This document shows, one piece after another, positions 1 through 53,024 of a stretch of 64,000 bases of DNA. How positions within the stretch are numbered: position 1 is the stretch's first letter; every line of letters starts with the position of its first letter. The notes under the pieces are model-generated. The model was not told the origin of the DNA and searched no databases. It saw only the letters and a program-made list of their open reading frames with translations. Position numbers and translations under genes: made by a program. The DNA comes from Vicinamibacteria bacterium (GTDB lineage: Bacteria; Acidobacteriota; Vicinamibacteria; Fen-336), in NCBI GenBank assembly GCA_035691285.1, contig DASSJI010000156.1:17858-81857 (forward strand). The letters run 5' to 3'.

Positions 1-1367
1 TCGATCTCGGCGCTCGCCTCGATCGCCCGGTCCAGCTCCGGGTCGGCGAGCCCGAGCTCGTTGCTGCGGCCCAGGCGCCGGCTCGGGTCGGGCGAGTGGA
101 GGAAGTCCGCGAGGAACTCGTAGGCGTCGCCGCTGATGCAGGCGACGCGATCCAGCCACACGCTGGCCTCCCGGCGGCGCAGCGCCTCGAAGAACTCGGC
201 GTCGGGGAGGGCCTCGACGTCGAGACGCACGCCGAGAGCGCGGAGGTCGGCGGCGACGAGCCGCGCCGGCTCCTCGAGGACGTGGCGAGTGTGGAGCACG
301 CCGGCGAAGCCCCCGCCCAGGCCCGCCTGCCGCAGCAGCTCCCGGGCGGCGCCGAGGTCGTGGCGCGGCTCGGGCAGGCCCGGATGGAAGCCGAACACGG
401 AGCGCGGGACCGGCTGCGAGGCGGGCTCGGCGTCGGTCGACAGTCGGGCCACGAGCGCCACTCGATCGAGGGCGAGGTGGAGGGCGCGGCGCACGCGCCG
501 GTCGCGGAAGGGGTTTGACCGGCCCGGGACGCCGGGCGAGCGCGTCCGCGCGAGATCGAAGCCAAGGAACTTCGTATACAGGCTCTCGCGGCGGGCGACG
601 CCGAAGCGGGCGGCGTCGGCGAGGGAGACCCGGTGCCCCTGGGCCTCGGCCAGGGCGGTCCGCCCGAGCCGCACGGCCTCGAGGGCCGCACGAGGAGGAA
701 GGCCCAGGTCGTACTCCGCGCGGAGAAACGGCGCCTCAGGGCCCCAATAGCCCTCGAAGCGGGTGAGGCTCAGGCGCCGCGCGCTCCAGGCCTCGATCCG
801 GTAGGGACCGGTGCCGATGCCTTCGGGTCCCCGCGCTCCGTGCGGCAGGATCAACACGCCCGTGAGCTTCTGCAGGAACGTGCGGTCCGGCTCGCGTGTC
901 CGAAGCTCGAGCGTGACGTCATCACGGACGCGGACCTCCTCGACGCCGCTCAGCTTCTTGCCCATCTCGAGGAGCGGGTCGCCCCGCAGGCGCGCGAGGG
1001 ACGCCGCCACGTCGGCCGCCGAGAAGGGGCGGCCGTCGTGGAACGCGACTCCGCGCCGCAGGCGGAAGATCCAGGTCCGCGGGTCGGGGTTCTCCCAGGC
1101 GTGCGCCAGGCGCGGCACGAGCTTCATATCCGTGTCGGTCGCGACGAGCGGCTCGTAGACGTTGGAGAGCAGCGCCGAGTTGCTGAGCGTGTCCTCGCGG
1201 TGGGGATCGAGGCTCGTCAGCTCGTAGGAGGCTCCGATGCGGAGCACATCGTCGCTCGGCCCTCGAGGGCCGACGCAGGTCGCAAGGCACAGCGCGCCCG
1301 TGACGCTCGCCGCCCGGCTCAGGATTGATGTCGGCACGCCGCGAAGACCTCCGCCGCGAGAAGACAT
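1..1367 (-). CDS. ABC transporter substrate-binding protein, family 5 (Opp/Dpp/Nik-like), partial; C-terminus lies beyond the window edge
   Basis: My own minus-strand translation from ATG 1367..1365 gives MSSRGGGLRGVPTSILSRAASVTGALCLATCVGPRGPSDDVLRIGASYELTSLDPHREDTLSNSALLSNVYEPLVATDTDMKLVPRLAHAWENPDPRTWIFRLRRGVAFHDGRP..., a typical SBP_bac_5 N-terminus with a lipoprotein-like signal. The frame stays open to position 1, so it is absent from the ORF track. Plus-strand ORFs 96..518, 136..750 and 633..1328 are its antisense shadows. Confidence 0.6.
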   Translation of the reverse strand, partial: MSSRGGGLRGVPTSILSRAASVTGALCLATCVGPRGPSDDVLRIGASYELTSLDPHREDTLSNSALLSNVYEPLVATDTDMKLVPRLAHAWENPDPRTWIFRLRRGVAFHDGRPFSAADVAASLARLRGDPLLEMGKKLSGVEEVRVRDDVTLELRTREPDRTFLQKLTGVLILPHGARGPEGIGTGPYRIEAWSARRLSLTRFEGYWGPEAPFLRAEYDLGLPPRAALEAVRLGRTALAEAQGHRVSLADAARFGVARRESLYTKFLGFDLARTRSPGVPGRSNPFRDRRVRRALHLALDRVALVARLSTDAEPASQPVPRSVFGFHPGLPEPRHDLGAARELLRQAGLGGGFAGVLHTRHVLEEPARLVAADLRALGVRLDVEALPDAEFFEALRRREASVWLDRVACISGDAYEFLADFLHSPDPSRRLGRSNELGLADPELDRAIEASAEI

Positions 1368-27572: not shown

Positions 27573-27953
27573 ATGCTCAGGAAGATCCTCGCGGTCGACG
27601 ACTCCGCGCTGATCCACCAGATGTACAAGCTCTTCCTCTCGCGCTACAAGAACTGCAAGCTGATCAGCGCGATGAACGGGCTCGAGGCCCTCGACAAGCT
27701 CGCGCAGGAAGAGGGCATCGACCTCATTCTCCTCGACATCAACATGCCGGTGATGAACGGCCTCGAGTTCCTGCAGCGGGTGCAGAAGGAGCCGGCCTAT
27801 CAGGCGATCCCCGTCATCATCATCTCGACCGAGGGCAAGGAAGAGGACACGATCCGCGGGCTCAAGATGGGGGCCAAGGGCTACGTGAAGAAGCCCTTCC
27901 AGGCCTCCGAGCTGCACGGCCTCATCGAGAAGATCACCTCGGCCTCGGCCTAG
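27573..27953 (+). CDS. cheY: chemotaxis response regulator CheY-like
   Basis: Receiver-domain residues DD, D(58-equivalent in LDINMP), T, K. Confidence 0.9.
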   Translation: MLRKILAVDDSALIHQMYKLFLSRYKNCKLISAMNGLEALDKLAQEEGIDLILLDINMPVMNGLEFLQRVQKEPAYQAIPVIIISTEGKEEDTIRGLKMGAKGYVKKPFQASELHGLIEKITSASA

Positions 27954-27962
27954 AGGCGCGCC

Positions 27963-29669: not shown

Positions 29670-29672
29670 GGG

Positions 29673-30428: not shown

Positions 30429-31357
30429 ACGCCGTGCCAAGGAGAGTGCCCATGAGAGTGCGTATCGCCCTGGCCGCCGCGGTGCTGGCGGCCCCGGTCC
30501 TCTCCGCCGCGGCGGACGTCGCGGTGCTGAAGAGCACCGACACCCCGGCCTGGCGCCCCGCCATCGACGCCCTGCGGCGGGGCGCGGGCGCCCACGCGGT
30601 GACCGAGCACGACCTCCGGAACGACCGGGCCGAGGCGGACCGCGTGATCGCCGGCCTCAAGGGCAAGGCCGCCGTGATGGTGGCGATGGGCCCGCTCGCG
30701 GCGCAGGCGGCGCGCGAGGGCGCCCCCGAGATCCCCCTGGTCTTCTGCATGGTGCAGGACCCGGCCCGGCTCGGCCTGGCCGGGGCGCCCAACGTGACCG
30801 GCGTGTCCTTCCAGATCCCGATCAAGAACCAGCTCGCGGCCTTCCGGCTGGTCAACCCCCGCGCCGTGAAGATCGGCGCGATCTACTCCGAAGCCAACAC
30901 CGGCCCCCAGGTGGCCGAGGCCACCAAGTCCGCGGGCGTCGTGCGCCTCAACGTGGTCGGCCGACCCGTGGCCTCCGAGCGCGACGTGCCCGAGGCGCTG
31001 CGCGGTCTCTTGAAGGGCGGGGACGCCGTGGATGCGCTCTGGATCCCGCCCGACCCGATCCTGCTCGGAGACGAGTCGCGCCGCTACATCCTCGCGGAGA
31101 CCCTGAAGGCGGGCAAGCCCGTGTACAGCTTCTCCTCGGCCCTCGTGGCGGAGGGGGCGCTCGTCTCGAACGGTCCCGACATGGGCTCGATCGGCGACCA
31201 GGCCGCGGAGCTCGTGAACCGCATCGCCGGCGGCGAGAAGGGCAAGATCGAGATGCTGGTCCCCCGGGCCGAGCTCGTGATCAACAAGAAGATCGCCGAC
31301 AAGCTCAAGGTCGACGTTCCCATCGACGCGCTGAAGGCGGCGGGAAAGGTGTTTTGA
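30425..31357 (+). CDS. periplasmic substrate-binding-like protein (COG2984-type ABC periplasmic component fold) embedded in the che operon
   Basis: Signal peptide and type-I periplasmic binding protein-like alternating pattern. ATGA overlap with cheW; stop abuts the mcp start. Confidence 0.55.
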   Translation: MNAVPRRVPMRVRIALAAAVLAAPVLSAAADVAVLKSTDTPAWRPAIDALRRGAGAHAVTEHDLRNDRAEADRVIAGLKGKAAVMVAMGPLAAQAAREGAPEIPLVFCMVQDPARLGLAGAPNVTGVSFQIPIKNQLAAFRLVNPRAVKIGAIYSEANTGPQVAEATKSAGVVRLNVVGRPVASERDVPEALRGLLKGGDAVDALWIPPDPILLGDESRRYILAETLKAGKPVYSFSSALVAEGALVSNGPDMGSIGDQAAELVNRIAGGEKGKIEMLVPRAELVINKKIADKLKVDVPIDALKAAGKVF

Positions 31358-33655: not shown

Positions 33656-33730
33656 ACGCGCCACGGAGACCCTGAGGACACGGAGCAGGAGGACGCCCCG
33701 CAAGGGCGTGTCTCCGCGGCGTCGCGATCC

Positions 33731-36097
33731 ATGAGCCTCGACATCCAGGCCGCCCTCGAGGCGCTGCGCTCCGGAGAGGAGTCGGTGCGCCGGGCGACCG
33801 TGGACCACCTCGGCCGTTCGGGCCTGCGCGAGGCGATACCCGCGCTCCTGACGGCGGTCGGCGACGACTCCTGGCCCGTGCGCCAGGCGGCGGCGGAGCA
33901 GCTCGCCGGCTTCGATCGCGCGGCGCTGCTGCCCGCCCTCGAGGCGGCCCTGCGCAACGACGAGGACGCGGCGCTGCGCAACGCGGCGATGGAGATCTAC
34001 GTGAAGCTGGGCGGGGCGGCGGTTCCCCCCCTGCTCGCCCTCATGGAGGACAGGGACGAGGAGATCCGCAACTTCGCGGCGGTCATGCTCGGCACGCTGC
34101 GCGACGAGCGCAGCGTGCCGGCCCTGGTCCGGGCGCTCCAGGACCCGGACGTCAACGTGCGCCACGCTGCCGCCGCGAGCCTGGGCCAGATCGGCTCCCG
34201 CGAGGCGGTGCCGCCGCTGATCGAGGCCCTGCGCACGGAGACGTGGCTCCAGTATCCGGCGATCACCGCCCTGGGCGAGATCGGAGACCCGCGCGCGACG
34301 CCGGCGCTCCTCGAGCTGCTCTCCGACGAGATGTTGCGCGGTCCTGTGCTCGAGGCCCTCGGACGGGTGGCCGGGCGCGAGGCGCTGCGCCACCTGATCC
34401 CGGGCCTGTACGCGGCCGATTCGGTGCTGCGCAACCTGGCGATCAAGGCGGTCGTGGCGATCGAGCAGCGGGCCACGGCCGAGGGCGAGAGCCTCGACCC
34501 CGACGTCCAGGCCGCGCTGCGTCGCGGCGACCTCGTCGAGCACCTGCTCCATACGCTCGACGACGACGACCCCACGATCCGGCGTACGGCGGTGATCACC
34601 CTCGGCTGGCTCAAGGAGCCGCGGGCCGAGGCGGCCCTGATCCGCCTGCTCGCCGAGCCGGGGCTGCAGGAGTACGTCACCCACGCCCTCGTCTCGATCG
34701 GGTGCCGGGACCGGGCGGCCTATCAGGAGGGGCTGCAGCACCCCGACGACGCCGTGCGCCAGGGCACGCTGCGGTGCGTCGCCTGGATCCAGCCGCCGGG
34801 GGCCATCGAGCTCGTGGCGCCGCTCATCCACGACCCGGCCGTCGAGGTGCGGGCGGAGGCCGTGGCCGCCATCGGGCGCGTCGGGCACGAAGACGCCCCG
34901 ATGCTCCTGTTCGAGCTGCTCGGGGACGAAAGCGAGATCATCCAGGAGAGCGCCATGGAGGCGCTGGCGCGCGCCGCGCCCGAGAAGGTGGTGCCACTCC
35001 TGCTCCAGGCCCTCGGCAGCGCGGACGTGCAGGTGCGGATCCGCGCCGCCGAGACCCTCGGCTTCCTGCGCCAGCCCGAGACGGCCCCCGCGCTCATCGC
35101 CTTGAGCCGGGATCCGCGCGAGCACGTGAGGCGCGCGGCGATCAAGGCCCTGGGCGAGCTGGAGGCGCCGGGCGTGAAGGACCTGCTCCGGGCGGCGCTC
35201 CTCGACGAATCGAGCCTGGTGCGCCAGCAGGCCGTGCTGTCGCTGGGCAAGCTCCAGGAGCCCGACACGGCGGAGGACCTGCTGCCGCTGCTGGACGACC
35301 CGGATCCGAAGATGCGCTTCGTCACGCTGCGCGCCCTGGGGCAGGTCCGCGGGCCGGAGGCCGTGACCCGGGTGCTGCCGTTCCTGCAGGAGGCGCGCAA
35401 GGAGCTGCGCTTCGCGGCGGTGGAGGCGCTCGGCCAGATGCGGGCGCTCCTGGCCGTGCGGCCCCTGATCGCCGTCCTGAGCGACGCCGACCGCAACCTG
35501 CGCCGAGCGGCCGCGGAAAGCCTCGGCGCCGTCGGCGACCCGCAGGCGGTGCCGCCGCTGCTCCTGGCCCTGGAGGACGACCACTGGAGCGTGCGCTGCG
35601 CCGCCGCCGCCGCCCTCGGCCGCATCGGCAGCGTGAAGGCGACGGCCGGGCTCCTGAGCCGGCTCGACGACGAGGACCCCACGGTGCGGCGCGCCGCCAT
35701 CGCCGCGCTGGGCGAGGTCGCGGACGCCCGGGCGGCGTTCCGGCTGATCCAGTCCCTGCAGGACCCCGCGCTGCAGGCTTCGGCCCTCGAGGCGCTGCGC
35801 CGGATGGGGCCGGCCGCGCTCCAGGAGATCGAGCGCGCGTTCGCGTCGCTCGCCGCGGACGCCCGCCGCCTGCTGGTGGACCTCGTCGGCCGCATCGAGG
35901 ATCGCCGCGCCGCCCGGCTGCTGCTCGACGCCCTCGCCGATGCCAGCGCCGCGGTGCGCGCCGAGGCCGCGCTGGCCCTGGGCGACGGCGGACACCTCGA
36001 CGCCCTGCGGCCGCTCATGGCGCTCAAGTCCGCCGACCCGGCGGCCGAGGTGCGCAAGGCCGCCGCGACGTCGCTGCGCAAGCTCCAGCCGCGATGA
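33731..36097 (+). CDS. HEAT-repeat (PBS-lyase-type) protein, about 20 repeats
   Basis: Repeated A(I/V)P(A/P)L(I/L)xxLxDxDxxVRxxAAxALGxIG units. Comparable to M. xanthus Cpc7 in the Che7 cluster. Confidence 0.8.
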   Translation: MSLDIQAALEALRSGEESVRRATVDHLGRSGLREAIPALLTAVGDDSWPVRQAAAEQLAGFDRAALLPALEAALRNDEDAALRNAAMEIYVKLGGAAVPPLLALMEDRDEEIRNFAAVMLGTLRDERSVPALVRALQDPDVNVRHAAAASLGQIGSREAVPPLIEALRTETWLQYPAITALGEIGDPRATPALLELLSDEMLRGPVLEALGRVAGREALRHLIPGLYAADSVLRNLAIKAVVAIEQRATAEGESLDPDVQAALRRGDLVEHLLHTLDDDDPTIRRTAVITLGWLKEPRAEAALIRLLAEPGLQEYVTHALVSIGCRDRAAYQEGLQHPDDAVRQGTLRCVAWIQPPGAIELVAPLIHDPAVEVRAEAVAAIGRVGHEDAPMLLFELLGDESEIIQESAMEALARAAPEKVVPLLLQALGSADVQVRIRAAETLGFLRQPETAPALIALSRDPREHVRRAAIKALGELEAPGVKDLLRAALLDESSLVRQQAVLSLGKLQEPDTAEDLLPLLDDPDPKMRFVTLRALGQVRGPEAVTRVLPFLQEARKELRFAAVEALGQMRALLAVRPLIAVLSDADRNLRRAAAESLGAVGDPQAVPPLLLALEDDHWSVRCAAAAALGRIGSVKATAGLLSRLDDEDPTVRRAAIAALGEVADARAAFRLIQSLQDPALQASALEALRRMGPAALQEIERAFASLAADARRLLVDLVGRIEDRRAARLLLDALADASAAVRAEAALALGDGGHLDALRPLMALKSADPAAEVRKAAATSLRKLQPR

Positions 36098-36104
36098 CGA
36101 CCTG

Positions 36105-36974
36105 ATGTTCCATCCCTCGGACCGCGAGATCGAGCTGGGCGAGGAGGAGTTTCGCCTGCTCCGCGACTTCATCCACGAGAAGTTCGGCCTCTTCTTCGAC
36201 GACGCCCAGCGCCACACGCTGCGGGCGCGGCTGGCGTCGCGGCTCACGAGCCTCGATCTCCTCTCCTACGAGGACTACTACCACTACCTGCGCTTCGGCC
36301 CGCAGCGGAACGAGGAGCTGCAGCGGATGGCGAGCCACCTCACCAACAACGAGACCTACTTCTTCCGCGAGCAGCCCCAGCTCCAGGTCTTCCAGGACCA
36401 CGTGCTCAAGGCGCTCAAGGAGCGCAAGGCACGGACGGGCGAGCGCGCCCTGCGGATCCTCTCGGCGGGCTGCTCCACCGGCGAGGAGATCCACACGATC
36501 GCGATGATCGTCTACGACAGCGGGCAGTTCTTCTGGAACTGGGAGGTGGATCTCGTGGGCCTCGACATCGACGAGGCGGCGCTGGAGCGGGCCCGCAAGG
36601 GCATCTACTTCCACAATTCCTTCCGCGGCCTGCCGTCCGCCATCCGCGAGCGCCACTTCTCGCGGGAGGGAGCGGGGGAGCGCGTCAAGGAGCCGCTGCG
36701 GCGGCTGATCCGCTTCCGGCAGGGCAACCTGATGGAGGCCGGCAGCTTCGACGGGCTGCGCCCGGTGGACGCGATCTTCTGCCGGAACGTGCTCATCTAC
36801 TTCTCCGACACCGCGATCCGGAAGGTGGTGGAGCACTTCTGGCGCACGCTCGCCCCCGAGGGCTACCTGATGCTCGGCCACGCCGAGTCGCTCTCGCGGA
36901 TCACGGACAGCTTCACGCCGATCCGCTTCCCGGGCGCCATGGTCTACCAGAAGCCCGTGCAGGCCGGCGCATGA
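36105..36974 (+). CDS. cheR: chemotaxis protein methyltransferase CheR
   Basis: Internal ATG of ORF 35940..36974, just after the HEAT gene stop. SAM-binding LRILSAGCSTGEE. Confidence 0.9.
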   Translation: MFHPSDREIELGEEEFRLLRDFIHEKFGLFFDDAQRHTLRARLASRLTSLDLLSYEDYYHYLRFGPQRNEELQRMASHLTNNETYFFREQPQLQVFQDHVLKALKERKARTGERALRILSAGCSTGEEIHTIAMIVYDSGQFFWNWEVDLVGLDIDEAALERARKGIYFHNSFRGLPSAIRERHFSREGAGERVKEPLRRLIRFRQGNLMEAGSFDGLRPVDAIFCRNVLIYFSDTAIRKVVEHFWRTLAPEGYLMLGHAESLSRITDSFTPIRFPGAMVYQKPVQAGA

Positions 36975-37999
36975 AGCGGCGCAGGATCCGGGTCCTGGTC
37001 GTGGACGACTCGGCCTTCGTGCGCCAGGCCCTCACGCGGATGCTCTCGGGCGAGGCCGACATCGAGGTCGTCGGCCAGGCCGTCGACGGACGGGACGGGC
37101 TCGACAAGATCCGCGGCCTGCACCCGGACGTGGTCACCATGGACGTCCAGATGCCGCGCATGGGCGGCCTCGAGGCGCTGGCGGAGCTGATGGCCCAGAA
37201 CCCGGTGCCGGTGTTGCTGCTGTCGTCCCAGACCCGCGAGGGGGCGGAGGTCACGCTGCGGGGCCTGGAGCTCGGCGCCCTCGACTTCGTGGACAAGTCG
37301 CGGGTGCAGGGGAACATGAACCTTCTCAACCTGGCCGAGGAGCTCAAGGCCAAGATCCGCGCCATCGCGGGCGTCCACGTGCCCCGGCGGGCCGCCGACG
37401 AACGCCCGCTGCCGGTGCTGCCGCGCAAGGCGCGGGCCGACGTGGTGGTCATCGCCACCTCGACGGGCGGGCCGCCGGCGCTCCAGGCCATCCTCCCGCG
37501 GCTGCCTCGCGCGCTGCCCTCGGCTGTGCTGGTGGTCCAGCACATGCCCGTGGGCTTCACGCGCTCGCTGGCCGAGCGCCTGTCGACCCGCAGCGAGCTG
37601 CCGGTGCGAGAGGCCGAGGACGGAGAACCCGTGGAGCCCGGCCTGGTGCTCGTGGCGCCGGCGGGCAAGCACACGAAGGTGCGCCGGCGCGGGGCGCTGG
37701 TCAGGGTCGTGCTGGACGACGAGCCGAAGCACGCGCTGCACCGGCCCTCGGCCGACGTGCTGATGGCCACGGTGGCCCGCGTCTACGGCTCGCGGGCGCT
37801 GGGCGTGGTGCTGACCGGGATGGGCTCCGACGGCACCGAGGGGCTCCGGGCGATCCGGGAGCACGGCGGGCGCACCCTCGCCGAGGCCGAGGAGAGCTGC
37901 GTGATCTACGGGATGCCCAAGTCCGCCGTCGAGGCCGGCGTCGTGGACGAGTCGGTGCCCCTCGAGCGCATGGCCGAGGCGATTCTCGCGGCGGTATAG
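36971..37999 (+). CDS. cheB: chemotaxis methylesterase CheB (REC + CheB_methylest)
   Basis: VVIATSTGGPPAL and GMGSDG motifs. ATGA overlap with cheR. Confidence 0.9.
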   Translation: MKRRRIRVLVVDDSAFVRQALTRMLSGEADIEVVGQAVDGRDGLDKIRGLHPDVVTMDVQMPRMGGLEALAELMAQNPVPVLLLSSQTREGAEVTLRGLELGALDFVDKSRVQGNMNLLNLAEELKAKIRAIAGVHVPRRAADERPLPVLPRKARADVVVIATSTGGPPALQAILPRLPRALPSAVLVVQHMPVGFTRSLAERLSTRSELPVREAEDGEPVEPGLVLVAPAGKHTKVRRRGALVRVVLDDEPKHALHRPSADVLMATVARVYGSRALGVVLTGMGSDGTEGLRAIREHGGRTLAEAEESCVIYGMPKSAVEAGVVDESVPLERMAEAILAAV

Positions 38000-38014
38000 A
38001 ATTCGGTCTCTCCG

Positions 38015-39778
38015 ATGAGCCTGACCGGCAACCTGGAAGACCTGCCGCTCCTCGACATCCTCCAGATCGTCTCGTTCAGCAAGAAGACCGGCTTTCTCAC
38101 CATCCAGGCCCAGGAGGGCCAGGGCGCAATCGTCTTCCACGACGGGCTCGTCGTCTCGGCCTTCACCTGGGAGAGCCTGCCCGTGGACCCGCGCATCGCC
38201 ACCCTGCCGCCCGATCGCCGCCATGCGGTCATCAAGAACCGGATCGTGATGGCCCTGGAGCGGCTGACGCGGCTGCGCGAGGGTCAGTTCAACTTCGCGC
38301 TGGTCGAGAGCGTGCCGCAAGCCGTCGGCGCGCGCGAGATCGTCCTCGAGACGCTGCCGACGGGCATCAACCCGCAGGAGATGCTGCTCGACCTGGCGCG
38401 AGGCCTGGACGAGGACCGGCGCGATTCCACGGCCGCTCTCGAAGCGTCCTTCGCCGACGTGCCGGTCGAGGCGCTCGCCGAGCCGACCCAGGCGGCGCAG
38501 GACGACCAGGTCGAGGAGCCCGGCGACGCCGTGGTCGCCTCCTTCGTGCAGGGAGCCACGACCGTGCAGGATGCCACGCCGGCCGAGGAGCCCGTCGAGA
38601 CCGCCGTGCCTCCACCGGCCCCTCCCGCGGCGCCCGACGACAGCGCCACGGTGGCGTTCACGCCGGAGGCGGCGACCGGGCGGCCCGCGCCACGCCGTGC
38701 CGAGCCATCCGCCCCCGCCGAGGCGCCGGCGGCTGGGCCGCCGCCCCGGACGGTCCTGCTGGTGGACGACGAGGACGACGTGCGCGGCATCATCGGCGGC
38801 CTGTTCCGCGTGGTCGGGTACGAGGTCATCGAGGCCGAGGATCCCGAGTCGGCGGTCAAGGCGGCCCAGACCCTGCACAAGGCCGGCGCCGCGTTCCTGC
38901 TCCTCGTCGACCTCGGGATGCCGGCCTCGGGCGGCTCGTCCTTCCAGGGCGGCTTCGAGGTGGTGAAGCGCCTGTGGAAGATGCACCTGCGGCCGCCGGT
39001 CCTGATGATGACGGACAGCCTGAACCCCGGCCTGCGCGCGCGGGCCCGCCAGATGGGGATCTCGAGCTTCGTCTTCAAGCCGGGTCTCTCGAAGCTCGAC
39101 CGCAAGCAGTTCGAGGCCGACCTGCGCGCCTTCGCCACCCGTCTGGTCCAGGACATCCTGCCTTCGATGGGCCGGGGCAACGGCGCGAAGCGCCCGAAGG
39201 CGTCCCGCCTGCCGGGGTCGGTCGAGGCGCCCCAGGCGGCTCCCGCCTCGGCGGCGGACCTCTCGCGCGAGCTGGGCCTGCTGCAGGAGCGACTCGCCGA
39301 GCTGCGCAAGCAGTCGGATCCCACGCAGATCGCGATGATGGTCATGCGCGTGGCCCGGGAGTTCTTCGAGCGCGGCGTCCTGCTCCTGGTCAAGAACGAG
39401 GAGCTGCGCGGCCTCGGCGGCTTCGGCATGGTTCCCAAGGATCACAGGATCGGCCTGCTCGTCCGCGAGATCGTGATCCCGCTCGGAGAGGACTCGATCT
39501 TCCGGGACGTCGCCGAGGGGCAGAAGACCTTCGTCGGAGCGCTGCCCGACGGCAAGTGGTCGAAGGCCCTGCTGGCCCGCATCGGCCGCTTCAAGTCCGG
39601 CGGCGCCGTGCTCGTGCCCCTGCTCACGAACCGGGAGACGATCGCCCTTCTCTACGGCGACAACCCGGAGACCGGCGTCACTCCCGGTCGTCTCGACACC
39701 CTGGAGCTCTTCATCAACCAGGCGGGGATCGCCCTCGAGAACGCGTTCCTGCAGCGGAAGGTCCGCGGCGCGGGGTAG
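38015..39778 (+). CDS. PATAN (DUF4388) - receiver - GAF-like multidomain response regulator
   Basis: N-terminal LEDLPLLDILQIVSFSKKTGFLTIQ (DUF4388/PATAN). A central REC domain (TVLLVDDEDDVRG ... LLVDLGMP). C-terminal GAF-like region. Confidence 0.75.
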   Translation: MSLTGNLEDLPLLDILQIVSFSKKTGFLTIQAQEGQGAIVFHDGLVVSAFTWESLPVDPRIATLPPDRRHAVIKNRIVMALERLTRLREGQFNFALVESVPQAVGAREIVLETLPTGINPQEMLLDLARGLDEDRRDSTAALEASFADVPVEALAEPTQAAQDDQVEEPGDAVVASFVQGATTVQDATPAEEPVETAVPPPAPPAAPDDSATVAFTPEAATGRPAPRRAEPSAPAEAPAAGPPPRTVLLVDDEDDVRGIIGGLFRVVGYEVIEAEDPESAVKAAQTLHKAGAAFLLLVDLGMPASGGSSFQGGFEVVKRLWKMHLRPPVLMMTDSLNPGLRARARQMGISSFVFKPGLSKLDRKQFEADLRAFATRLVQDILPSMGRGNGAKRPKASRLPGSVEAPQAAPASAADLSRELGLLQERLAELRKQSDPTQIAMMVMRVAREFFERGVLLLVKNEELRGLGGFGMVPKDHRIGLLVREIVIPLGEDSIFRDVAEGQKTFVGALPDGKWSKALLARIGRFKSGGAVLVPLLTNRETIALLYGDNPETGVTPGRLDTLELFINQAGIALENAFLQRKVRGAG

Positions 39779-39813
39779 GCCCGCCCTGCGGGGGCGAGGA
39801 AGGGGGGGCTTGA

Positions 39814-39821
39814 TATAGAAT
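39814..39821 (+). promoter_or_regulatory. TATAGAAT -10-like box 18 nt upstream of the GAF gene
   Basis: gcttgaTATAGAATcc. Confidence 0.2.
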
Positions 39822-39838
39822 CCCCGGCCGAAGAGCGT

Positions 39839-40639
39839 ATGGCGAACCCCGACGACCCCCGCAAGAGCCAGGACTTCTTCTCGATCTTCACCAAGGCCAA
39901 GGAGTTCACCGAGGAGCTGCTCAAGGAAAACGAGCGGCTGCGCTTCCGCATCGCGCAGCTCGAGAGCAGCCCCGGACCGGTCGGGGGCGAGGCCGGGGAG
40001 CTCCAGCAGCGCGTCAAGGACCTGGAGACGAAGCTCCAGGAGATGGAGAAGCGCTTCAAGCGCGTCGAGGCCGAGAACAAGGAGTTCGCCGACCGCTACC
40101 TCGAGATCGAGGAGCAGAACAACAACCTGGCGAACCTCTACGTCGCCTCCTACCAGCTCCACTCCACCCTGGACTACAAGGAGGTCGTGCGCATCGTCCA
40201 GGAGATCGTGATCAACCTGATCGGGGCCGAAGCCTTCCACGTGTTCGTGCTGAACGAGAAGACCGGCAGCCTCGAGCTCGAGTCGAGCGAGGGCCAGACC
40301 GCCGGCCTCACCACGATCCCGATCGGCCAGGGCAAGATCGGCGGCGCCGCCGCCTCTGGCGAGAACTACTTCGCCGACCACGTCGCCACCCGGGAGGCCG
40401 CTCCCTTCGACGAGCCGCTCGCGGTGATCCCGCTCAAGATCAAGGACAGCGTGATCGGCGTGATCTCGATCAACAAGCTGCTCGTGCAGAAGACCGCCTT
40501 CAACGCCATGGACTACGAGCTGTTCACGCTCCTCGCGGGGCACGCCGCCACGGCGATCTTCTCCTCGAAGCTCTACTCGCTCTCGGCGAGGAAGCTCACG
40601 ACCCTCCAGGGCTTCCTCGACATGATGAAGCAGAAGTAG
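39839..40639 (+). CDS. coiled-coil + GAF domain protein
   Basis: N-terminal heptad-rich segment (LKENERLRFRIAQLE ... KDLETKLQEMEKRFKRVEAENKE), then a GAF fold (FHVFVLNEKTGSLEL ... VIGVISINKL). Confidence 0.7.
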   Translation: MANPDDPRKSQDFFSIFTKAKEFTEELLKENERLRFRIAQLESSPGPVGGEAGELQQRVKDLETKLQEMEKRFKRVEAENKEFADRYLEIEEQNNNLANLYVASYQLHSTLDYKEVVRIVQEIVINLIGAEAFHVFVLNEKTGSLELESSEGQTAGLTTIPIGQGKIGGAAASGENYFADHVATREAAPFDEPLAVIPLKIKDSVIGVISINKLLVQKTAFNAMDYELFTLLAGHAATAIFSSKLYSLSARKLTTLQGFLDMMKQK

Positions 40640-43652: not shown

Positions 43653-45185
43653 GTGGCGGTCCACCGGGAGGCCAACGAGACGAGCCTCGACCTCTACGAC
43701 CAGTACTCCCTGCCGGGCTTCGACGCCCATGTGTACATGGCCATGGCCGACGCGCCCTCGGTGTTCACGCTGCCGCCCTGGGGCTGGCGGCTGCTGGGCC
43801 CCGCGCTCGTGCACGCGCTGCCGTTGCCTTCGGCGCGCGGCTTCTCCTGGGTCACCCACGCCTTCCTGACGGCGTCCGGCGGGCTGCTCTTCCTGTTCCT
43901 GCGCCGGCTCGGGTCCGGGCCGCAGGCGGCGCTCCTCGGCGTCGCCGCCTTCGCCTTCGCGCAGCCGGTGGAGGCCTCCGTGGCCTATCCCTTCCTGGCC
44001 GAGCCCCTGACGCTCGTCTGCGTGCTCGCGCTCCTCTGGGCTGTCGAGGCCGGCTGCGGCGCCGGGCCGCTGGCACTCGCCGCCACGGCGGGCGCCCTGT
44101 CGAAGGAGATCGTCATCCTGCTCCTGCCCGTGATCTTCTTCGCGCGGCGCGATCGCGACGGGACCCCCCGGGCCCTCGCCACGACCCTCGCGGCCGCAGC
44201 GCCCGCGGCCCTCGCGACGTTCCTCGTGCGGTACGTCTGGGCGTCCGCCCGCCCCGCGCCGCTCGCCGCGGACCAGGAGGCGGTCTGGCTGGCGCTGTGG
44301 CGGCTCGTCGACGGCGCCGGGCAGTGGCTGCCGGCCGCCGCGCTTTCAGGCTTGACGCCCCTCGCGATGCTCGGCGCCTTGCGGGCTCCAGGGCGGCTGC
44401 TCCTGCGCCGCTACGGGTACGGCCTGGCGGTGACCTGGGCCCTCCCCTTCGCTGCATCGGTCTACACCGGCGAGAAGTCGGCGCCCTTCTTCCTCGACGA
44501 CATCCCGCGGCTGCTCCTCTACGCGCTGCCGTTCGTCGTGGCGCTCGCCCTCGTCGCCTGGGACGCCGCCTTCGCGCACCTCGAGCCGCCCGCCGTGCGC
44601 CTCCACTACGCCACGGGAGCGGCGCTGGTCACGAGCCTGCTGGCCCTGTTGCTGGGCGCTTGGCCGGCGTTGGCACTCGATCGCTACCGTCGCGCGGACC
44701 TCTCCGGGCCGCGCGACGGCCGCCTGGTCCTGGCCTTTTGTCGCGAGAGCCTGGCCGAGGCGCGTCGGCTGGAGCAGGGACGACAGGTCGACTACGACCC
44801 CGAGCGCCGCAGCTTCGTGCCGCGCAAGAGCTACCCGGAGCTCCTGGGCCGGATGCGCTGGTTCCTGCGAGACGGTTGGGGGCCGGGCGCACCTTACCGT
44901 GTCGGGCCGGTCGTCACCCGGTCGGCGAGCGCTGCCCTGGTGCTGCCGTGCTTGCGCCCCGAGGACCTGAACGCGACCCTCTCGCTGCAGGCCCCGCGGG
45001 AGATGCGCGTGCGCGTGGCCGTCAACGGGCGCGTGGTCGGCGAGCTCGTGGCCCGCCCCGAGCCGGACCGGCTGCGCGTCCTGGTGCCGGGCGGCTTGCT
45101 CTTCCGCGGTGACAACGAGCTGCGCCTGCTGGCGCCCGAGCCTGGCTTGCGACTCCTCGGGCTGCGGGTGCGGGCGGCTCGCTGA
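43653..45185 (+). CDS. polytopic membrane protein (>=10 TM), GT-C-like / unknown function
   Basis: Multiple hydrophobic helices and a soluble C-terminal domain. The nearest start is GTG 43653, but an in-frame hydrophobic segment precedes it. Confidence 0.55.
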   Translation: MAVHREANETSLDLYDQYSLPGFDAHVYMAMADAPSVFTLPPWGWRLLGPALVHALPLPSARGFSWVTHAFLTASGGLLFLFLRRLGSGPQAALLGVAAFAFAQPVEASVAYPFLAEPLTLVCVLALLWAVEAGCGAGPLALAATAGALSKEIVILLLPVIFFARRDRDGTPRALATTLAAAAPAALATFLVRYVWASARPAPLAADQEAVWLALWRLVDGAGQWLPAAALSGLTPLAMLGALRAPGRLLLRRYGYGLAVTWALPFAASVYTGEKSAPFFLDDIPRLLLYALPFVVALALVAWDAAFAHLEPPAVRLHYATGAALVTSLLALLLGAWPALALDRYRRADLSGPRDGRLVLAFCRESLAEARRLEQGRQVDYDPERRSFVPRKSYPELLGRMRWFLRDGWGPGAPYRVGPVVTRSASAALVLPCLRPEDLNATLSLQAPREMRVRVAVNGRVVGELVARPEPDRLRVLVPGGLLFRGDNELRLLAPEPGLRLLGLRVRAAR

Positions 45186-45192
45186 TCCTGGG

Positions 45193-46842
45193 ATGGGGTC
45201 CCTGCTGCGCGTCCACGCCCCGGCGCTCCTCGTCGTGACGGCGGCGGCGGTCCACCTCTACGGCGCGGCGCTCTCGAGTCGCGCTTTCCAGACCCACGAG
45301 GCCCTCCACCCCTACGAAAGGGTGCGACAGATCCTCGCCGAGGTCGCGCGCGGTCACGTTCCGCAGTCCTTCCCCGATGCCGTGGGCGGGCTGGGCTCGG
45401 CCTTCCCACGCTACTATCCCCCGCTGGCCTACGCTGCGGCCTCGGCGCTCGCGGGCCTCATGAACAACGCCGCGCTCGGCGTGAACCTCGCCTTCTTCCT
45501 GGCCGCCCTGCTCACGGGCGTCGCGACCTACTGGGCGGTCCATGCCGTCGCCCGCGACCCCTGGCTGGCGCTCGGCGGGGCGCTGCTTGCGCTCGCGGCC
45601 CCCTATCGGCTGGCTCAGGTCTTCGTGCGAGGCGCGCTGGCGGAGTCCTGGTCCCTCGTGTTCTATCCCGTGGCCTTGCTCGGAGCCTTCCGCGCCGTCT
45701 CGGGCCGCCCGGCGTGGCACTTGCCCCTGGCGGTCGCCGGGCTCCTGCTCACGCACCAGGTCACGCTGCCGTACGCCCTGCCCCTCTTCGCCGCGCTCGC
45801 CTTCTGGGCCTGGCGGCGACAAGGCCACGGAGCCCTCGGACGCCTGGTCGCGTTCGCGGCGCTGGGCGTCGGCCTGGCGCTGTTCTTCCTCTTGCCGCAG
45901 CGGGCAGGGCTCGGCTCGCTCAACGTCGCCGACCGCGCTCTCATGGGCGCGACGCCCGAGGCGGTCTCTGCGCACCGGGTCCGCGCGGCCCAGCTCTTCG
46001 AGCTGCCGCGACCCGATCGCTGGTGGGGCCTCTCACGACCCGAGCCCGAGCACGACGGGATGAGCTTCTTCCCCGGGTGGGCGCCGCTGCTCGCGCCGCC
46101 CCTGGCGATTGCGGCCGGCTTCATGCGCCGGCGGACGGCGGGGCCGGGCCTGCAGCTCGGATCGATCCTGGCAGGGTTCTCGGTCCTCGCCCTCGCGTTC
46201 GTGGTGGCGCCGGAGCCGTGGCTCAGGCTCCTGCCGGGCGTGCTCGGGTACATCCAGTTCCCCTGGCGCCTCCTCGGGCTCGCCGGCCTGTGCTCGGCGA
46301 TGGCCGTGCCGCTCCTCGTCGGGGCTCTCGGTCCCTCACGGCCGACGCGCTTCGTCGTGGCCGCCCTCGGCGTGGCAGCCGTGGCGTCCGTGCCGTCCTT
46401 CGAGCGCCAGGCGCTGCTGCCGGCGGCGAGCGACCTGAGCGGGTCCCCGACCGGCAGCGGCGGGGGCCTCGGCCTGACGGTCCAGGGCGAGTACCTGCCG
46501 AAGGCGTTCGACCCCGCCTCGCCGAGGCCCAGCGGGCCGGAGCTGCCCGGCGGCCGCGTGGTCGCCTGGTCGCGCGACGGCGCGGACATGACCGTGACCG
46601 TCGAAGCGCCACGCGGCGGGGAGCTGCGCCTGCCCCTCTTCTTCTTCGACTTCTATCGCGCCCGTGACGGAGACGGCCACGCCCTTCCCACGCTTGCCTC
46701 GGGCCCCTGGCTCGCCGTCCGGGTGCCGCCCGGGACGAGCGAGGTGCGCCTCGGCCAGGGGCTCACGCGACTCGCCCTGGTCGGCATCGTGCTGAGCCTC
46801 GCCGCACTGGCCGTCTGGCTCGACCTGGTCCTCCGTCGCTGA
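45193..46842 (+). CDS. polytopic membrane protein (>=10 TM) with C-terminal periplasmic domain, unknown function
   Basis: Internal ATG of ORF 45109..46842. N-terminus MGSLLRVHAPALLVVTAAAVHLY. Confidence 0.6.
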   Translation: MGSLLRVHAPALLVVTAAAVHLYGAALSSRAFQTHEALHPYERVRQILAEVARGHVPQSFPDAVGGLGSAFPRYYPPLAYAAASALAGLMNNAALGVNLAFFLAALLTGVATYWAVHAVARDPWLALGGALLALAAPYRLAQVFVRGALAESWSLVFYPVALLGAFRAVSGRPAWHLPLAVAGLLLTHQVTLPYALPLFAALAFWAWRRQGHGALGRLVAFAALGVGLALFFLLPQRAGLGSLNVADRALMGATPEAVSAHRVRAAQLFELPRPDRWWGLSRPEPEHDGMSFFPGWAPLLAPPLAIAAGFMRRRTAGPGLQLGSILAGFSVLALAFVVAPEPWLRLLPGVLGYIQFPWRLLGLAGLCSAMAVPLLVGALGPSRPTRFVVAALGVAAVASVPSFERQALLPAASDLSGSPTGSGGGLGLTVQGEYLPKAFDPASPRPSGPELPGGRVVAWSRDGADMTVTVEAPRGGELRLPLFFFDFYRARDGDGHALPTLASGPWLAVRVPPGTSEVRLGQGLTRLALVGIVLSLAALAVWLDLVLRR

Positions 46843-46850
46843 CGCGGGCC

Positions 46851-49451
<2,601 letters not shown>

Positions 49452-49473
49452 CGGCAAACGCCCTCCGCACAAG

Positions 49474-49502
49474 AATATAGACCATGAGCGTCTAATTGTC
49501 AA
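49474..49502 (-). promoter_or_regulatory. near-consensus sigma70 promoter for clpB (TTGACA, 17-nt spacer, TATATT)
   Basis: On the minus strand, -35 at 49497..49502 and -10 at 49474..49479. Predicted TSS about 15 nt upstream of ATG 49451. Confidence 0.5.
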
Positions 49503-49528
49503 TAGAAATGAGTCTAATCATGAATAGA
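49490..49528. promoter_or_regulatory. tandem 17-bp near-palindromic repeats (GTCTAAT-N4-AATAGA, twice, 5-bp gap) overlapping the clpB -35
   Basis: Copies at 49490..49506 (gtctaatTGTCaataga) and 49512..49528 (gtctaatCATGaataga), in the clpB-cysK divergent region. Candidate operator. Confidence 0.35.
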
Positions 49529-49548
49529 CGGTCGCGCAGGTCTTCCCG

Positions 49549-49556
49549 TATAGAAT
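49549..49556 (+). promoter_or_regulatory. TATAGAAT -10-like box 25 nt upstream of cysK
   Basis: ccgTATAGAATcgc. GGAGG SD before ATG 49582. Confidence 0.25.
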
Positions 49557-49581
49557 CGCGGGGCTTCCAAGGGAGGTCGGC

Positions 49582-50520
49582 ATGATCCACGAGAGCATCC
49601 TCGGCACCATCGGAAACACGCCGGTGGTTCGCATCAACCGGCTGGCGCCGAAGCACACCACGATCTACGTGAAGTGCGAGGCGTTCAACCCGATGAGCTC
49701 GGTGAAGGACCGCCTGGCCATCGCGATGATCGAGGACGCCGAGCGCCGCGGCACGTTGAAGCCGGGGCAGACCGTGGTCGAGCCGACCTCGGGCAACACA
49801 GGGATCGCCCTCGCCATGGTGTGCGCGGCCAAGGGCTACCCGTTCGTGGCCGTCATGGCCGACAGCTTCAGCGTGGAGCGGCGCAAGCTGATGAAGGGCC
49901 TGGGCGCGAAGGTCGTGCTGACACCCGCCGCCGAGCGGGGTTCCGGCATGGTCAAGAAGGCGGAGGAGCTGGCGAAGAAGAATGGCTGGTTCCTGCCCCA
50001 GCAGTTCGAGAACCCCTCGAACCCCGAGTACCACCGCAACACCACCGGCCCCGAAATCCTGCGCGATTTCGCCGGCAAGCGCCTCGACTACTTCGTGAGC
50101 GGAATCGGGACCGGGGGGACGATCACCGGAGCCGGAGAGATGCTCAAGAAGGCACGGCCGGACATCAAGATCGTCTACACCGAGCCCGACGTGGCGCCCC
50201 TCGTGACGAAGGGCGAGTTCAAGCCGCACAAGATCCAGGGCTGGAACCCGGACTTCGTGCCCGCCGTGTTCAACCGCAGCGTCTACGACGAGGCGGTGCT
50301 GGTGGGCGAGGTCGAGGCCCGCGATGCAGCACGCGCGCTCGCCTTCAAGGAGGGCATCTTCTGCGGCATCTCTTCCGGAGGCACCTTCGCCGCTGCGCTG
50401 AAGGTGGCCCAGAAGGCGGCCGAGGGCTCGGTGATCCTCGCCATGCTGCCCGACACCGGCGAGCGCTACCTGACGACGTTCCTGTTCGAGGGGATCACCG
50501 AGGAGTCGGACGCGGTCTAG
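49582..50520 (+). CDS. cysK: cysteine synthase A (O-acetylserine sulfhydrylase)
   Basis: PLP-lysine motif SSVKDR, and GTGGT. Confidence 0.95.
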   Translation: MIHESILGTIGNTPVVRINRLAPKHTTIYVKCEAFNPMSSVKDRLAIAMIEDAERRGTLKPGQTVVEPTSGNTGIALAMVCAAKGYPFVAVMADSFSVERRKLMKGLGAKVVLTPAAERGSGMVKKAEELAKKNGWFLPQQFENPSNPEYHRNTTGPEILRDFAGKRLDYFVSGIGTGGTITGAGEMLKKARPDIKIVYTEPDVAPLVTKGEFKPHKIQGWNPDFVPAVFNRSVYDEAVLVGEVEARDAARALAFKEGIFCGISSGGTFAAALKVAQKAAEGSVILAMLPDTGERYLTTFLFEGITEESDAV

Positions 50521-50540
50521 AATCGGCGCGGAGGTCTCCC

Positions 50541-52202
50541 GTGACGAAGCGGACGCCGGCGCTGTGTGCCCTGCTGTTGTCCCTCCCTGCTGCGGCCCAG
50601 GAGGATCCGCACGCCGCCTGCACGGCCGTCGGCTGGGTGCCTCGGGAGATCCTCGAGCGGCCCGTCACGTTGCGTCCCGGCGTGGGGAACGCCCACGAGG
50701 CCGTGACGACGGCCTCGCCCGAGGCGCAGGCCCTTTACGACCAGGGGCTGAACTACCTCCACGGCTACGTCTGGATCGAGGCGGCCCGCTCGTTCCGTCA
50801 GGCGCTGCGCCACGACCCGGGTCTCGCCATGGCGCACCTGGGCCTGAGCCGCGTCTACTCCGGACTCGACGACCCGGATGGCGCGCGGCGCGCGCTGGCC
50901 GAGGCACAGGCGCGCGCGGGTGCCGCGAGCTCCCGCGAGCGGCGCCGCATCGCGCTGCGCGCGGGCCAGCTCGACGCGATGGAGCGCCTGTCCGACGCGG
51001 CGCGGCACGCCGAGTACAAGAAAGCGATCGACGAGGCCCTCGCCGTCGACATCGCGGACCCGGAGCTGTGGCTCGTGCGTGGCAACGCCGAGGAGCCCAC
51101 CGCCGCCGGACGCGGCCAGCGCGGCGGGTCCGCCTCGACGGCGTTCTATCTCGAAGCGCTGCGCCTCGCGCCCGACCACTCCGCGGCCCACCACTATCTC
51201 ACGCACTCCTACGAGACGGTCGGCCAGATCCCCCTCGCCTTGGAGCACGGCGAAGCCTACGCCCGCCTGGCGCCGGCCGTGCCCCACTCGCACCACATGT
51301 GGGGCCACGACCTCCGCCGCGTCGGCCGAATCGACGACGCGATCGCGGCCTTCCGGCGCACGTACGAGCTGGAGACCGCCTACTACGCGGCCGAGAGCAT
51401 ACCGGCGAGCCTGGACTGGCACCACGTCCACAACCTCGACCTGCTGGCCACCTCGCACCAGCACAAGGGCCAGATGCGAAAGGCCGAGGCGCTGCTCCGC
51501 GAGGCCGGCGCGATGCCGCCGGTGACCGAGTACCTGGAGTTCAACCAGAAAGCCCTGGCGACGTTCCTGCTCGCCCGGAGCCGGTGGGAGGACGCCTTGG
51601 AGGCCTCCCGCGCGCTTGCGGCGGGGAAGTGGCCAGCCACGCGGGCCGTCGGACAGGCGCTGTCGGGACATGCGCTGCTCCAGCGCGATCGCGTCGCCGA
51701 GGCCCGGGTCGCCCTGGCCGCGGCCGAGCGCGAGCTCGAGTCCATGCCCAGCCTCGCCGCGGGGCTGAACGTCTCCCGGTCGGCGGCGGCCCCGTACGTC
51801 GACACGCTGCGCGGCGAGCTCCTGCTGCGCTTCGGCGACCGGGAGGCGGGGCGCGCCCTGCTCGAAGACGTCGAGCGCCGGCTCCGGGCGCTGCCCGGGC
51901 CCGACGCCTGGATCCAGGCGCTGTTCCGGCTCGAGGCCATCGGTCGGATCGCCCGGGACGTCGGCGACTGGGGGCTGGCCGAGCACACGGCGCAGCAGAT
52001 GCTCGACCACGACCCGGCCTACGCCGGCACGCACCTGGCGCTCGCCCTGGTCGCGCATCGCAAGGGCGACCGCGAGGAGGCGGGCCGCCGCAGCGAGGCG
52101 GCGCGAGGCTGCTGGCGCGACGCGGACCCCGGGCTCGAGGAGCTGACCCTCCTCGCCTCGCTCGCGTCCCCGGCCGTGGCCCGTAGCGGGTCGGCGCCCT
52201 AG
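50541..52202 (+). CDS. secreted TPR-repeat protein
   Basis: In-frame GTG after GGAGG. Signal peptide (V)TKRTPALCALLLSLPAAAQ. The rest of ORF 49674.. is a cysK shadow. Confidence 0.65.
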   Translation: MTKRTPALCALLLSLPAAAQEDPHAACTAVGWVPREILERPVTLRPGVGNAHEAVTTASPEAQALYDQGLNYLHGYVWIEAARSFRQALRHDPGLAMAHLGLSRVYSGLDDPDGARRALAEAQARAGAASSRERRRIALRAGQLDAMERLSDAARHAEYKKAIDEALAVDIADPELWLVRGNAEEPTAAGRGQRGGSASTAFYLEALRLAPDHSAAHHYLTHSYETVGQIPLALEHGEAYARLAPAVPHSHHMWGHDLRRVGRIDDAIAAFRRTYELETAYYAAESIPASLDWHHVHNLDLLATSHQHKGQMRKAEALLREAGAMPPVTEYLEFNQKALATFLLARSRWEDALEASRALAAGKWPATRAVGQALSGHALLQRDRVAEARVALAAAERELESMPSLAAGLNVSRSAAAPYVDTLRGELLLRFGDREAGRALLEDVERRLRALPGPDAWIQALFRLEAIGRIARDVGDWGLAEHTAQQMLDHDPAYAGTHLALALVAHRKGDREEAGRRSEAARGCWRDADPGLEELTLLASLASPAVARSGSAP

Positions 52203-52205
52203 CGG

Positions 52206-53024
52206 ATGGATCGCCTCGCCAAGACCCGCGCGCTCTTCGGAGCGCCGCGCGCCCTCGTCGGCGTCATCCACCTGCCCGCGCTCCCGGGGGCCCCGAAGTC
52301 GCAGCTCGGCGTGCGGGCCATCGCCGAGGCCGCGGCGGCCGAGGCCCTGCTCTATCGCGACGCCGGCTTCCACGCCGTGATGATCGAGAACATGCACGAC
52401 CGGCCCTATCTCCCACGGGCGGCAGGGCCGGAGATCGTGGCCGCCATGGCCGTGACCGGGCGCGAGGTGCGGCGCGCGGCCGGCCTGCCCCTGGGCGTGC
52501 AGGTCCTCGCGGGCGCGAACCGCGCGTCGCTGGCCGTGGCCCACGCCTGCGGCGGGGCCTTCGTCCGGGTCGAGGGCCTCGTGTTCGCGCACGTCGCCGA
52601 CGAAGGCCTCATGACCGCCGACGCCGGCGAGCTGCTTCGCTACCGGCGTGCCATCGGCGCCGAGGGCGTCCGGATCCTGGCCGACGTGAAGAAGAAGCAC
52701 TCCGCCCACGCCATCACCGCCGACGTGGATCTCGTGGCGACGGCCCACGCGGCCGAGTTCTTCCTGGCCGACGGCGTCGTCGTCACCGGGCCGGCGACGG
52801 GGCGCGCGGCCGAACCCGCCGAGGTCCGCGCGGTGGCGGCCGCTGCCTCCGTTCCGGTCGTCGTCGGATCGGGCGTCACGCCCCAGAACCTCTCGGACTA
52901 CGTGGACGCCGACGCCTTCATCGTCGGCTCCTCCCTGAAGTTCGACGGGCTCTGGTCGAACCCCATCGAGCCCGAGCGCCTGGCGGCGCTGCGGCGGGCG
53001 TTCGAGACGCTCCCGCCGCGGTGA
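52206..53024 (+). CDS. BtpA/SgcQ-family TIM-barrel protein
   Basis: LVGVIHLPALPG ... GFHAVMIEN ... pattern typical of PF03437. Confidence 0.7.
   Translation: MDRLAKTRALFGAPRALVGVIHLPALPGAPKSQLGVRAIAEAAAAEALLYRDAGFHAVMIENMHDRPYLPRAAGPEIVAAMAVTGREVRRAAGLPLGVQVLAGANRASLAVAHACGGAFVRVEGLVFAHVADEGLMTADAGELLRYRRAIGAEGVRILADVKKKHSAHAITADVDLVATAHAAEFFLADGVVVTGPATGRAAEPAEVRAVAAAASVPVVVGSGVTPQNLSDYVDADAFIVGSSLKFDGLWSNPIEPERLAALRRAFETLPPR

Follow-up and report, generated by a model that had tools for sequence, protein, structure and literature searches.

What controls clpB in an uncultured soil bacterium of the Vicinamibacteria whose clpB and cysK-like genes diverge from a shared intergenic region? In the 64-kb stretch of DNA analysed here (hereafter the window; G+C content 66–76%), clpB has a near-consensus promoter, and a sequence-only reading had proposed that this promoter is overlapped by heat-shock-repressor-like sequence, namely two tandem 17-bp boxes. 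Comparison with orthologous promoters bears out the overlap, because conserved cores that are not part of the promoter overlie it, but the conserved element is not the pair of boxes. It is an array of 5-bp half-sites, which resembles the HAIR operator of HspR-type repressors.

The window ClpB is 100% identical to an NCBI-named ClpB of a Vicinamibacteria MAG, and the divergent cysK-like gene encodes a PLP-dependent enzyme (Table 1). Read 5' to 3' on the minus strand, the clpB upstream region is GTCTATTCATGATTAGACTCATTTCTATTGACAATTAGACGCTCATGGTCTATATTCTTGTGCGGAGGGCGTTTGCCGATG. Orthologous loci were collected by scanning metagenomes with the 143 N-terminal residues of ClpB, which are less conserved (80 loci, 62–82% identity), and by look-ups of the closest ClpB proteins (four more loci, 86–90% identity, at least three of them with a divergent cysK). 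A genome-contig scan with ClpB residues 1–200 gave, among the matches listed, distant ClpB loci only (≤56% identity); these were too remote for close footprinting and served instead for comparison with other Acidobacteriota and as actinobacterial controls. The 63 distinct upstream regions were aligned on the -35 hexamer, and patterns were counted in 76 distinct orthologous regions from Vicinamibacteria-like contigs.

Table 1. Features of the clpB–cysK region (window coordinates, written in the reading direction of the strand).
Feature	Position	Strand	Basis or remark
clpB coding sequence, 866 aa	46851..49451	-	Pfam Clp_N, AAA, AAA_lid_9, AAA_2, ClpB_D2-small
clpB Shine-Dalgarno sequence GGAGGG, 9 nt before ATG	49466..49461	-	Read from the sequence; GGAGG kept there in orthologues
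clpB -10 hexamer TATATT	49479..49474	-	Promoter scan; orthologue consensus TAnnTT
Half-site R2, GCTCA, within the spacer, 7 nt after -35	49489..49485	-	Column conservation
Left arm L2, TGACA, last five bases of -35	49501..49497	-	Part of the proximal dyad
clpB -35 hexamer TTGACA	49502..49497	-	Promoter scan; nearly invariant in 63 anchored orthologous promoters
Half-site R1, ACTCA, 7 nt upstream of TGACA	49513..49509	-	Right arm of the distal dyad (49527..49507)
Expected distal left arm L1, here degenerate ATTCA	49525..49521	-	CTTGA-like peak across orthologues
Proximal 17-bp box GTCTAATTGTCAATAGA	49490..49506	+	Covers -35 plus the proximal-dyad N7 spacer; box shared only by L110
Distal 17-bp box GTCTAATCATGAATAGA, near-palindrome	49512..49528	+	Overlaps two R1 bases and the weakly conserved part upstream
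Probable cysK -10 TATAGAAT, followed by conserved CGCGGGG	49549..49556	+	Conserved in synteny-sharing relatives
cysK-like gene (PLP-dependent enzyme), divergent from clpB	49582..50520	+	Pfam PALP, E = 1.5e-71

Several features of the surrounding DNA were recorded alongside. Rfam gave no RNA family in the intergenic region, and an RNA role of the clpB upstream element was dropped because both predicted transcription starts are downstream of it. Long ORFs without a Pfam match overlap on opposite strands at 50517–52748 (743 aa minus, 540 aa plus). A long chemosensory cluster on the plus strand (27567–40639) encodes a CheY-like receiver, CheA, CheW, MCP, an 813-aa HEAT-repeat protein, CheR, a GAF-containing DUF4388/PatA-type response regulator and a GAF protein. 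MoxR-like ATPase and VWA genes come after the cluster, and the part closest to clpB recurs beside clpB in three related loci (L081, L163 and L164). AT skew in 2-kb bins is strong locally (+0.27 at 32001–34000 and -0.35 at 44001–46000), which is probably a compositional effect of the local genes.

The minus-strand clpB promoter is as close to consensus as the sequence-only reading had said: TTGACA-17-TATATT agrees with the sigma70 consensus in 11/12 positions. Just two sigma70-like sites with ≥10/12 matches exist on both strands of the window, and this one is the better. The other, TTGACG-16-TATAGT at 8794–8836 (+), closely precedes an ORF (8821–10137) whose product has Rho RNA-binding and ATPase domains. 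From the -10 to the clpB ATG (49451..49449) we count 22 nt, where about 23 had been given. Both hexamers and their 17-bp spacing are conserved in the 63 anchored orthologues, with TAnnTT columns of T 62/63, A 61/63, T 55/63 and T 62/63. Hexamers, spacing and start-codon distance are thus those of a sigma70-type promoter (TTGACA-16..18-TATAAT, suitably spaced from the start codon), and on this sequence evidence clpB is predicted to be transcribed from a strong housekeeping (sigma70/SigA-type) promoter.

We then asked what the 17-bp boxes represent. Their motif, GTCTAATNNNNAATAGA (described earlier as GTCTAAT-N4-AATAGA), occurs twice, 22 bp apart and exactly at the positions that had been given for it, and has no further copy in the window (expected count 0.01). 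A post-hoc shuffle test, which is fairer than the expected count, gave a 14/17 direct repeat at 10–40 bp distance in 5/2000 cases when the 130-bp intergenic region was shuffled (dinucleotide-type) and in 2/2000 when only its AT-rich core was. Since the boxes are located exactly and so few shuffles (0.1–0.25%) match them, the description is correct and the repeat is not noise. The first box does span the -35 hexamer. Each box had been called an imperfect inverted repeat: the distal box is a good palindrome (12-nt arms, 92% complementary), the proximal box a much weaker one.

The boxes are not conserved, however. The nearest relatives with cysK–clpB synteny (86–90% ClpB identity) lack them: these retain ACTCA, TTGACAAT, [AG]CTCA and TATATT but not TCTATT and ATTAGAC. 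The boxes are also missing from some 60 other orthologous promoters, and the proximal box is common only to L110. Information content is low across most of both boxes in the 63-region alignment, and the box pattern was not found in distant clpB upstream regions among the matches listed. Judged from these alignments, the 17-bp boxes are a real local repeat of the window genome and not the conserved recognition unit, and the earlier view of them as the operator unit is not supported. The conserved cores, ACTCA and RCT[AC]A, border the boxes at a distance of 24 bp from each other, not 22. If a 2-bp gap is allowed, the repeat reaches TCTATT-N4-ATTAGAC-(GC)-TCAT; the boxes may result from two neighbouring copies of a single operator unit, or may be a private extra site.

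What is conserved is a different pattern. The alignment consensus in the clpB sense is ..ACTCA.at.acTTGACAat.a.a..CTaA.g.CcTA..TT, with high information content at ACTCA, TTGACA, CT[AC]A, the CC before the -10 and TAnnTT. The two half-sites outside the hexamers, R1 and R2, equal the -35 in information content. No other non-promoter element is as well conserved as R1 (A 55, C 62, T 62, C 51 and A 62 of 63); R2, in the spacer, has C in 59/63, T in 57/63 and A in 60/63 regions, and reads ACTCA at the same position in other Acidobacteriota. Together with the -35, R2 forms a proximal HAIR-like dyad, aTTGACA-N7-GCTCAtG, at 49503..49483 on the minus strand. The pattern [AG]CT[AC]A-N7-TGAC[AGT]-N7-[AG]CT[AC]A is present in 55/76 distinct orthologous upstream regions and in 0 shuffles, and in most of the regions that lack it clpB lies directly behind another gene.

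Traces of a fourth half-site, L1, are visible upstream of R1. The match to a CTTGA-like word peaks exactly 7 nt upstream of R1 (mean 2.22, vs about 1.2 at other offsets), and 11 sequences have a ≥4/5 CTTGA match there. Many regions read TTAGC or TTGAG at this position, i.e. the reverse complements of GCTAA and CTCAA, and the L1 consensus is T[TG]AG[CT]. The array can thus be written (weak T[TG]AG[CT])-N7-ACTCA-N7-TGACA-N7-RCT[AC]A, with 24 bp from ACTCA to RCT[AC]A; because the fourth half-site lies 7 nt upstream of R1, it consists of two L-N7-R dyads, 24 bp centre to centre. Dyad symmetry is partial in Vicinamibacteria, where strong symmetry is confined to the T-A and A-T pairs and R2 is often GCTAA, and no clear excess of within-sequence dyad covariation beyond the consensus was found. 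A position-weight-matrix scan of the window and about 700 kb of Vicinamibacteria-like DNA gave no site outside clpB; the same DNA contains no other chaperone genes apart from one hsp20. This gene, at 13380–13567 (-) of L124, is the only hsp20 in a Vicinamibacteria-like locus, and has a strong TTGACA-17-TATAAG promoter without ACTCA-type half-sites.

The half-sites and their spacing resemble a known operator. The HAIR consensus of HspR is CTTGAGT-N7-ACTCAAG, and the S. albus clpB promoter contains a repeat of this type to which HspR binds (PMC6102357, citing Grandvalet 1999). In Deinococcus, HspR represses chaperone and protease genes via HAIR sites (PMC6888292). The cbpA promoter of H. pylori has a central HAIR from which further HspR dimers are nucleated to both sides (PMC6102357), a recruitment of flanking dimers that the multi-half-site array fits. 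The window dyad (aTTGAcA-N7-gCTCAtG) matches HAIR at 9/14 positions and is unconvincing by itself, because coding DNA elsewhere in the window gives chance matches at least as good. The Vicinamibacteria consensus is CTTGACA-N7-RCT[AC]A[GT]G, and its N7 geometry is exact in 55/76 orthologues. Placement also agrees with HAIR, which is found on or near chaperone or protease promoters: the window dyad overlaps the clpB -35 and spacer, and in other Acidobacteriota a HAIR-like dyad lies on the hsp20–clpB promoter.

These sister-class promoters are the closest to HAIR. Among the matches listed, hsp20–clpB promoters in the sister Acidobacteriota classes, Blastocatellia/Pyrinomonadaceae (L001, L007, L013 and L020) and Terriglobia/Bryobacterales (L032, L034, L038, L039, L050, L051 and L060), read CTTGACA-N7-ACTCA[AT][AGT]-TTT-TATnAT. 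These sites, again among the matches listed, match HAIR at 10–12/14 positions with exact 7-N7-7 geometry, and two constant mismatches create TTGACA. In L020, for example, the site CTTGACAgtccagcACTCAAGtttTATATT is HAIR with two mismatches, both of which make the left arm a consensus -35. Some sister-class loci also have an R1-like GCTAA or ACTAA 7 nt upstream of TGACA, and a locus of the actinobacterial class Acidimicrobiia (L065) has a full Vicinamibacteria-type array, ACTCA-N7-TGAAA-N7-GCTAA. The sequence-only reading had set HAIR aside; that is fair for the window sequence alone (9/14) but not for the family consensus and the sister-class promoters, which match HAIR in both sequence and 7-N7-7 geometry and for this reason suggest that the repressor is probably not of an uncharacterised type.

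As a positive control we used Solirubrobacterales with hspR beside clpB, where T[AT]AGT-N7-ACTTA lies at the clpB promoter with equal 5-N7-5 geometry and a related half-site whose fourth position varies. Like the array, this operator (L041, L055 and L011) has a 5-N7-5 dyad and targets clpB, with ACTTA in place of ACTCA/ACTAA; in contrast to it, it is a perfect palindrome that lies just downstream of the -10 and not over the -35, and hspR is directly upstream. In these genomes, with dnaJ–hspR upstream of clpB, a near-perfect palindrome AATCT[AT]AGTC-N5-GACTTAGATT comes right after a CATAAT/TAATAAT -10 (clpB upstream regions, about 4840–4880 in L041, 5720–5760 in L055 and 5940–5980 in L011), and it appears to be a local HAIR variant, T[AT]AGT-N7-ACTTA.

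The Vicinamibacteria array shares with the HspR/HAIR systems of Streptomyces, Mycobacterium, Deinococcus, Helicobacter and Campylobacter (i) the ACTCA core and arm-N7-arm geometry; (ii) a location on the clpB or hsp20 promoter, with more than one dyad per promoter; and (iii) a strong vegetative promoter held by a repressor, which for the present locus we infer. It differs in that the -35 itself serves as proximal left arm (TGACA in place of TGAGT), R2 has diverged to RCT[AC]A, the left arm further upstream is weak and the host phylum, Acidobacteriota, has no described HspR system. On these sequence comparisons, the array is probably an operator of the HspR/HAIR kind, in a phylum without an earlier description of one.

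Two other heat-shock operators were ruled out in agreement with the sequence-only reading. The HrcA operator CIRCE (TTAGCACTC-N9-GAGTGCTAA) likewise overlaps a sigma70-type promoter, and its words TTAGC and ACTC also occur here, but neither spacing nor arm sequences agree; at 49441–49600 the closest match has 9/18 mismatches. CIRCE usually targets groESL and dnaK, not clpB. The CtsR box of Firmicutes (RGTCAAANANRGTCAAA; RGTCAAA-NAN-RGTCAAA) also controls clp genes, overlaps promoters and has a repeat with TTGAC on the opposite strand. It is, however, a direct heptad repeat with 3-nt spacing, only one TTGAC is present here and the best match has 5/15 mismatches.

Our preferred explanation, to which we give a probability of about 0.6, is that a strong housekeeping clpB promoter is repressed by an HspR-type repressor via the HAIR-like array. 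The operator would consist of four 5-bp half-sites of alternating orientation at 7-nt spacing (a period of 12 bp), in the order L1, R1, L2 and R2, and would form two HAIR-like dyads, one over the -35 and spacer and the other at roughly -47 to -67 relative to the predicted transcription start. At normal temperature, HspR-type (MerR-family) dimers would occupy both dyads, probably cooperatively, and block RNA polymerase at the -35 and spacer. Upon heat shock or proteotoxic stress the repressor would lose affinity and the near-consensus promoter would fire. In Streptomyces, HspR loses affinity when its co-repressor DnaK is titrated by unfolded proteins.

We propose an HspR-type repressor on both dyads because a near-consensus housekeeping promoter with a dyad over the -35 and spacer is the standard layout of negative heat-shock control (e.g. 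by HspR, HrcA and CtsR). MerR-style activation uses over-long spacers and is disfavoured here because the spacer is 17 bp. The promoter and the array, their strong conservation in Vicinamibacteria and the HAIR sequence and geometry in sister classes can be read directly from the alignments, and from them the HspR-type identity of the repressor, repression over activation and heat as the signal would follow as the likely interpretation.

A gene for such a repressor was sought near clpB. Searches including regular expressions and Pfam gave no hspR or any other MerR-family gene in the 64-kb window, and phmmer gave none in about 700 kb of Vicinamibacteria-like flanks. When loci were searched by regular expression and phmmer, HspR was found, among the matches listed, in actinobacterial loci only; profile, representative and cluster-name searches for HspR returned only actinobacterial or unnamed proteins among the matches listed. 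No conserved regulator gene stands beside hsp20–clpB in other Acidobacteriota among the matches listed: an Lrp/AsnC-type gene is near hsp20–clpB in two Pyrinomonadaceae loci only and is not conserved. A literature search found no paper that links HspR with Acidobacteria. In an Acidobacteriota MAG (L016, 5560–5901), a small MerR_2/CbpM-like gene follows a cbpA/dnaJ-like gene directly before clpB, in the order dnaK–cbpA–cbpM–clpB and without a HAIR-like site; a similar small CbpM-like gene is directly before clpB in a Nitrospirae MAG (L063, 5503–5958).

These negative searches would be expected if the conserved array were read by a regulator unrelated to HspR, i.e. an Acidobacteriota-specific heat-shock regulator that recognizes ACTCA-like half-sites at a 12-bp period. 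The literature searched likewise has no paper on HspR in this phylum, R2 is GCTAA as often as ACTCA, the symmetry is partial, and R1 and R2 also permit a reading as direct repeats at a distance of 24 bp. Sister-class sites that match HAIR at 10–12/14 positions with exact 7-N7-7 geometry on classic HspR targets (clpB and hsp20), and the array in the Acidimicrobiia locus, make such a regulator somewhat unlikely. We also consider it unlikely that Vicinamibacteria or Acidobacteriota lack HspR and have an undescribed heat-shock regulator on the array. It is likewise a remote possibility that, in the window genome, the 17-bp boxes add a lineage-specific regulator coupling clpB and cysK; if true, this coupling would link proteotoxic stress with cysteine/sulfur stress. 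It is very improbable that a repressor of clpB, and perhaps of cysK, which is uncharacterised and possibly lineage-specific, uses the boxes (GTCTAAT-N4-AATAGA) themselves as its operator. In favour are a repeat that chance would rarely produce, a distal box that forms a good palindrome between two divergent promoters and a 22-bp spacing of about two helical turns, but relatives with 86–90% ClpB identity and the same gene order do not keep the boxes, nor do about 60 orthologues, the proximal box is largely the -35 plus a spacer part that prefers AT.A.A family-wide and the window holds no third copy.

Control without any repressor, by an RpoH (sigma32)-type or dual sigma70/sigma32 promoter (CTTG-N18-CCTATCT) together with an upstream element, seems to us quite unlikely. 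The sigma32 -10 is CCCCATnT, with an alphaproteobacterial form CTTG-N17-18-CYTATNT, and proteobacterial clpB is sigma32-dependent. The likeness lies in the target gene, the CTTGA of the -35 and the C-rich stretch before the Vicinamibacteria -10, where a conserved CC (C 52/63 and C 42/63) gives the reading CcTAtcTT. CTTGACA and CcTAtcTT resemble the sigma32 consensus CTTGAAA-N13-15-CCCCATnT, but 61/63 regions have C as the fifth -35 base, whereas sigma32 favours TTGAAA, and the gap measures 16 nt. The 17-bp spacing is the sigma70 optimum, and the sister classes, among the matches listed, have a plain TATnAT without CC and yet keep ACTCA in the spacer. Conserved elements in the spacer and the -45 region are foreign to sigma32 promoters; sigma70 does not read the R1 and R2 positions, and because sigma factors in general are not base-specific in mid-spacer or the -45 region, sigma32 leaves R1 and R2 unexplained. 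Since the conserved CC before the -10 recalls sigma32 promoters, a second sigma factor may nevertheless recognize the clpB promoter.

On the cysK side, a -10-like sequence had been placed at 49549, and we find TATAGAAT there (Table 1). GTATAGAATCnCGGGG is conserved in L162, L081, L164 and L082, all with cysK–clpB synteny. More broadly, the cysK upstream sequence GTATAGAATCGCGGGG (49540–49581, +), with the -10-like TATAGAAT and a G+C-rich discriminator, is conserved in four same-synteny relatives. No recognizable -35 was seen upstream of TATAGAAT, and for this reason the cysK promoter may need an activator. The expected -35 position (about 49526–49533) touches the left end of the distal dyad, and the conserved cysK -10 is 22 bp beyond this dyad.

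The general picture of bacterial heat-shock control is unchanged by these results. They provide an example of a repressor arm merged with a consensus -35 hexamer, and the clpB promoter is a strong, probably stress-inducible promoter for genetic tools in hard-to-grow bacteria. Heat-shock regulation is essentially undescribed in Acidobacteriota, which are among the most abundant soil phyla. For this phylum, the promoter–operator module that precedes clpB or hsp20–clpB phylum-wide is a concrete, testable candidate operator, and the array offers a search pattern for the remaining regulon.
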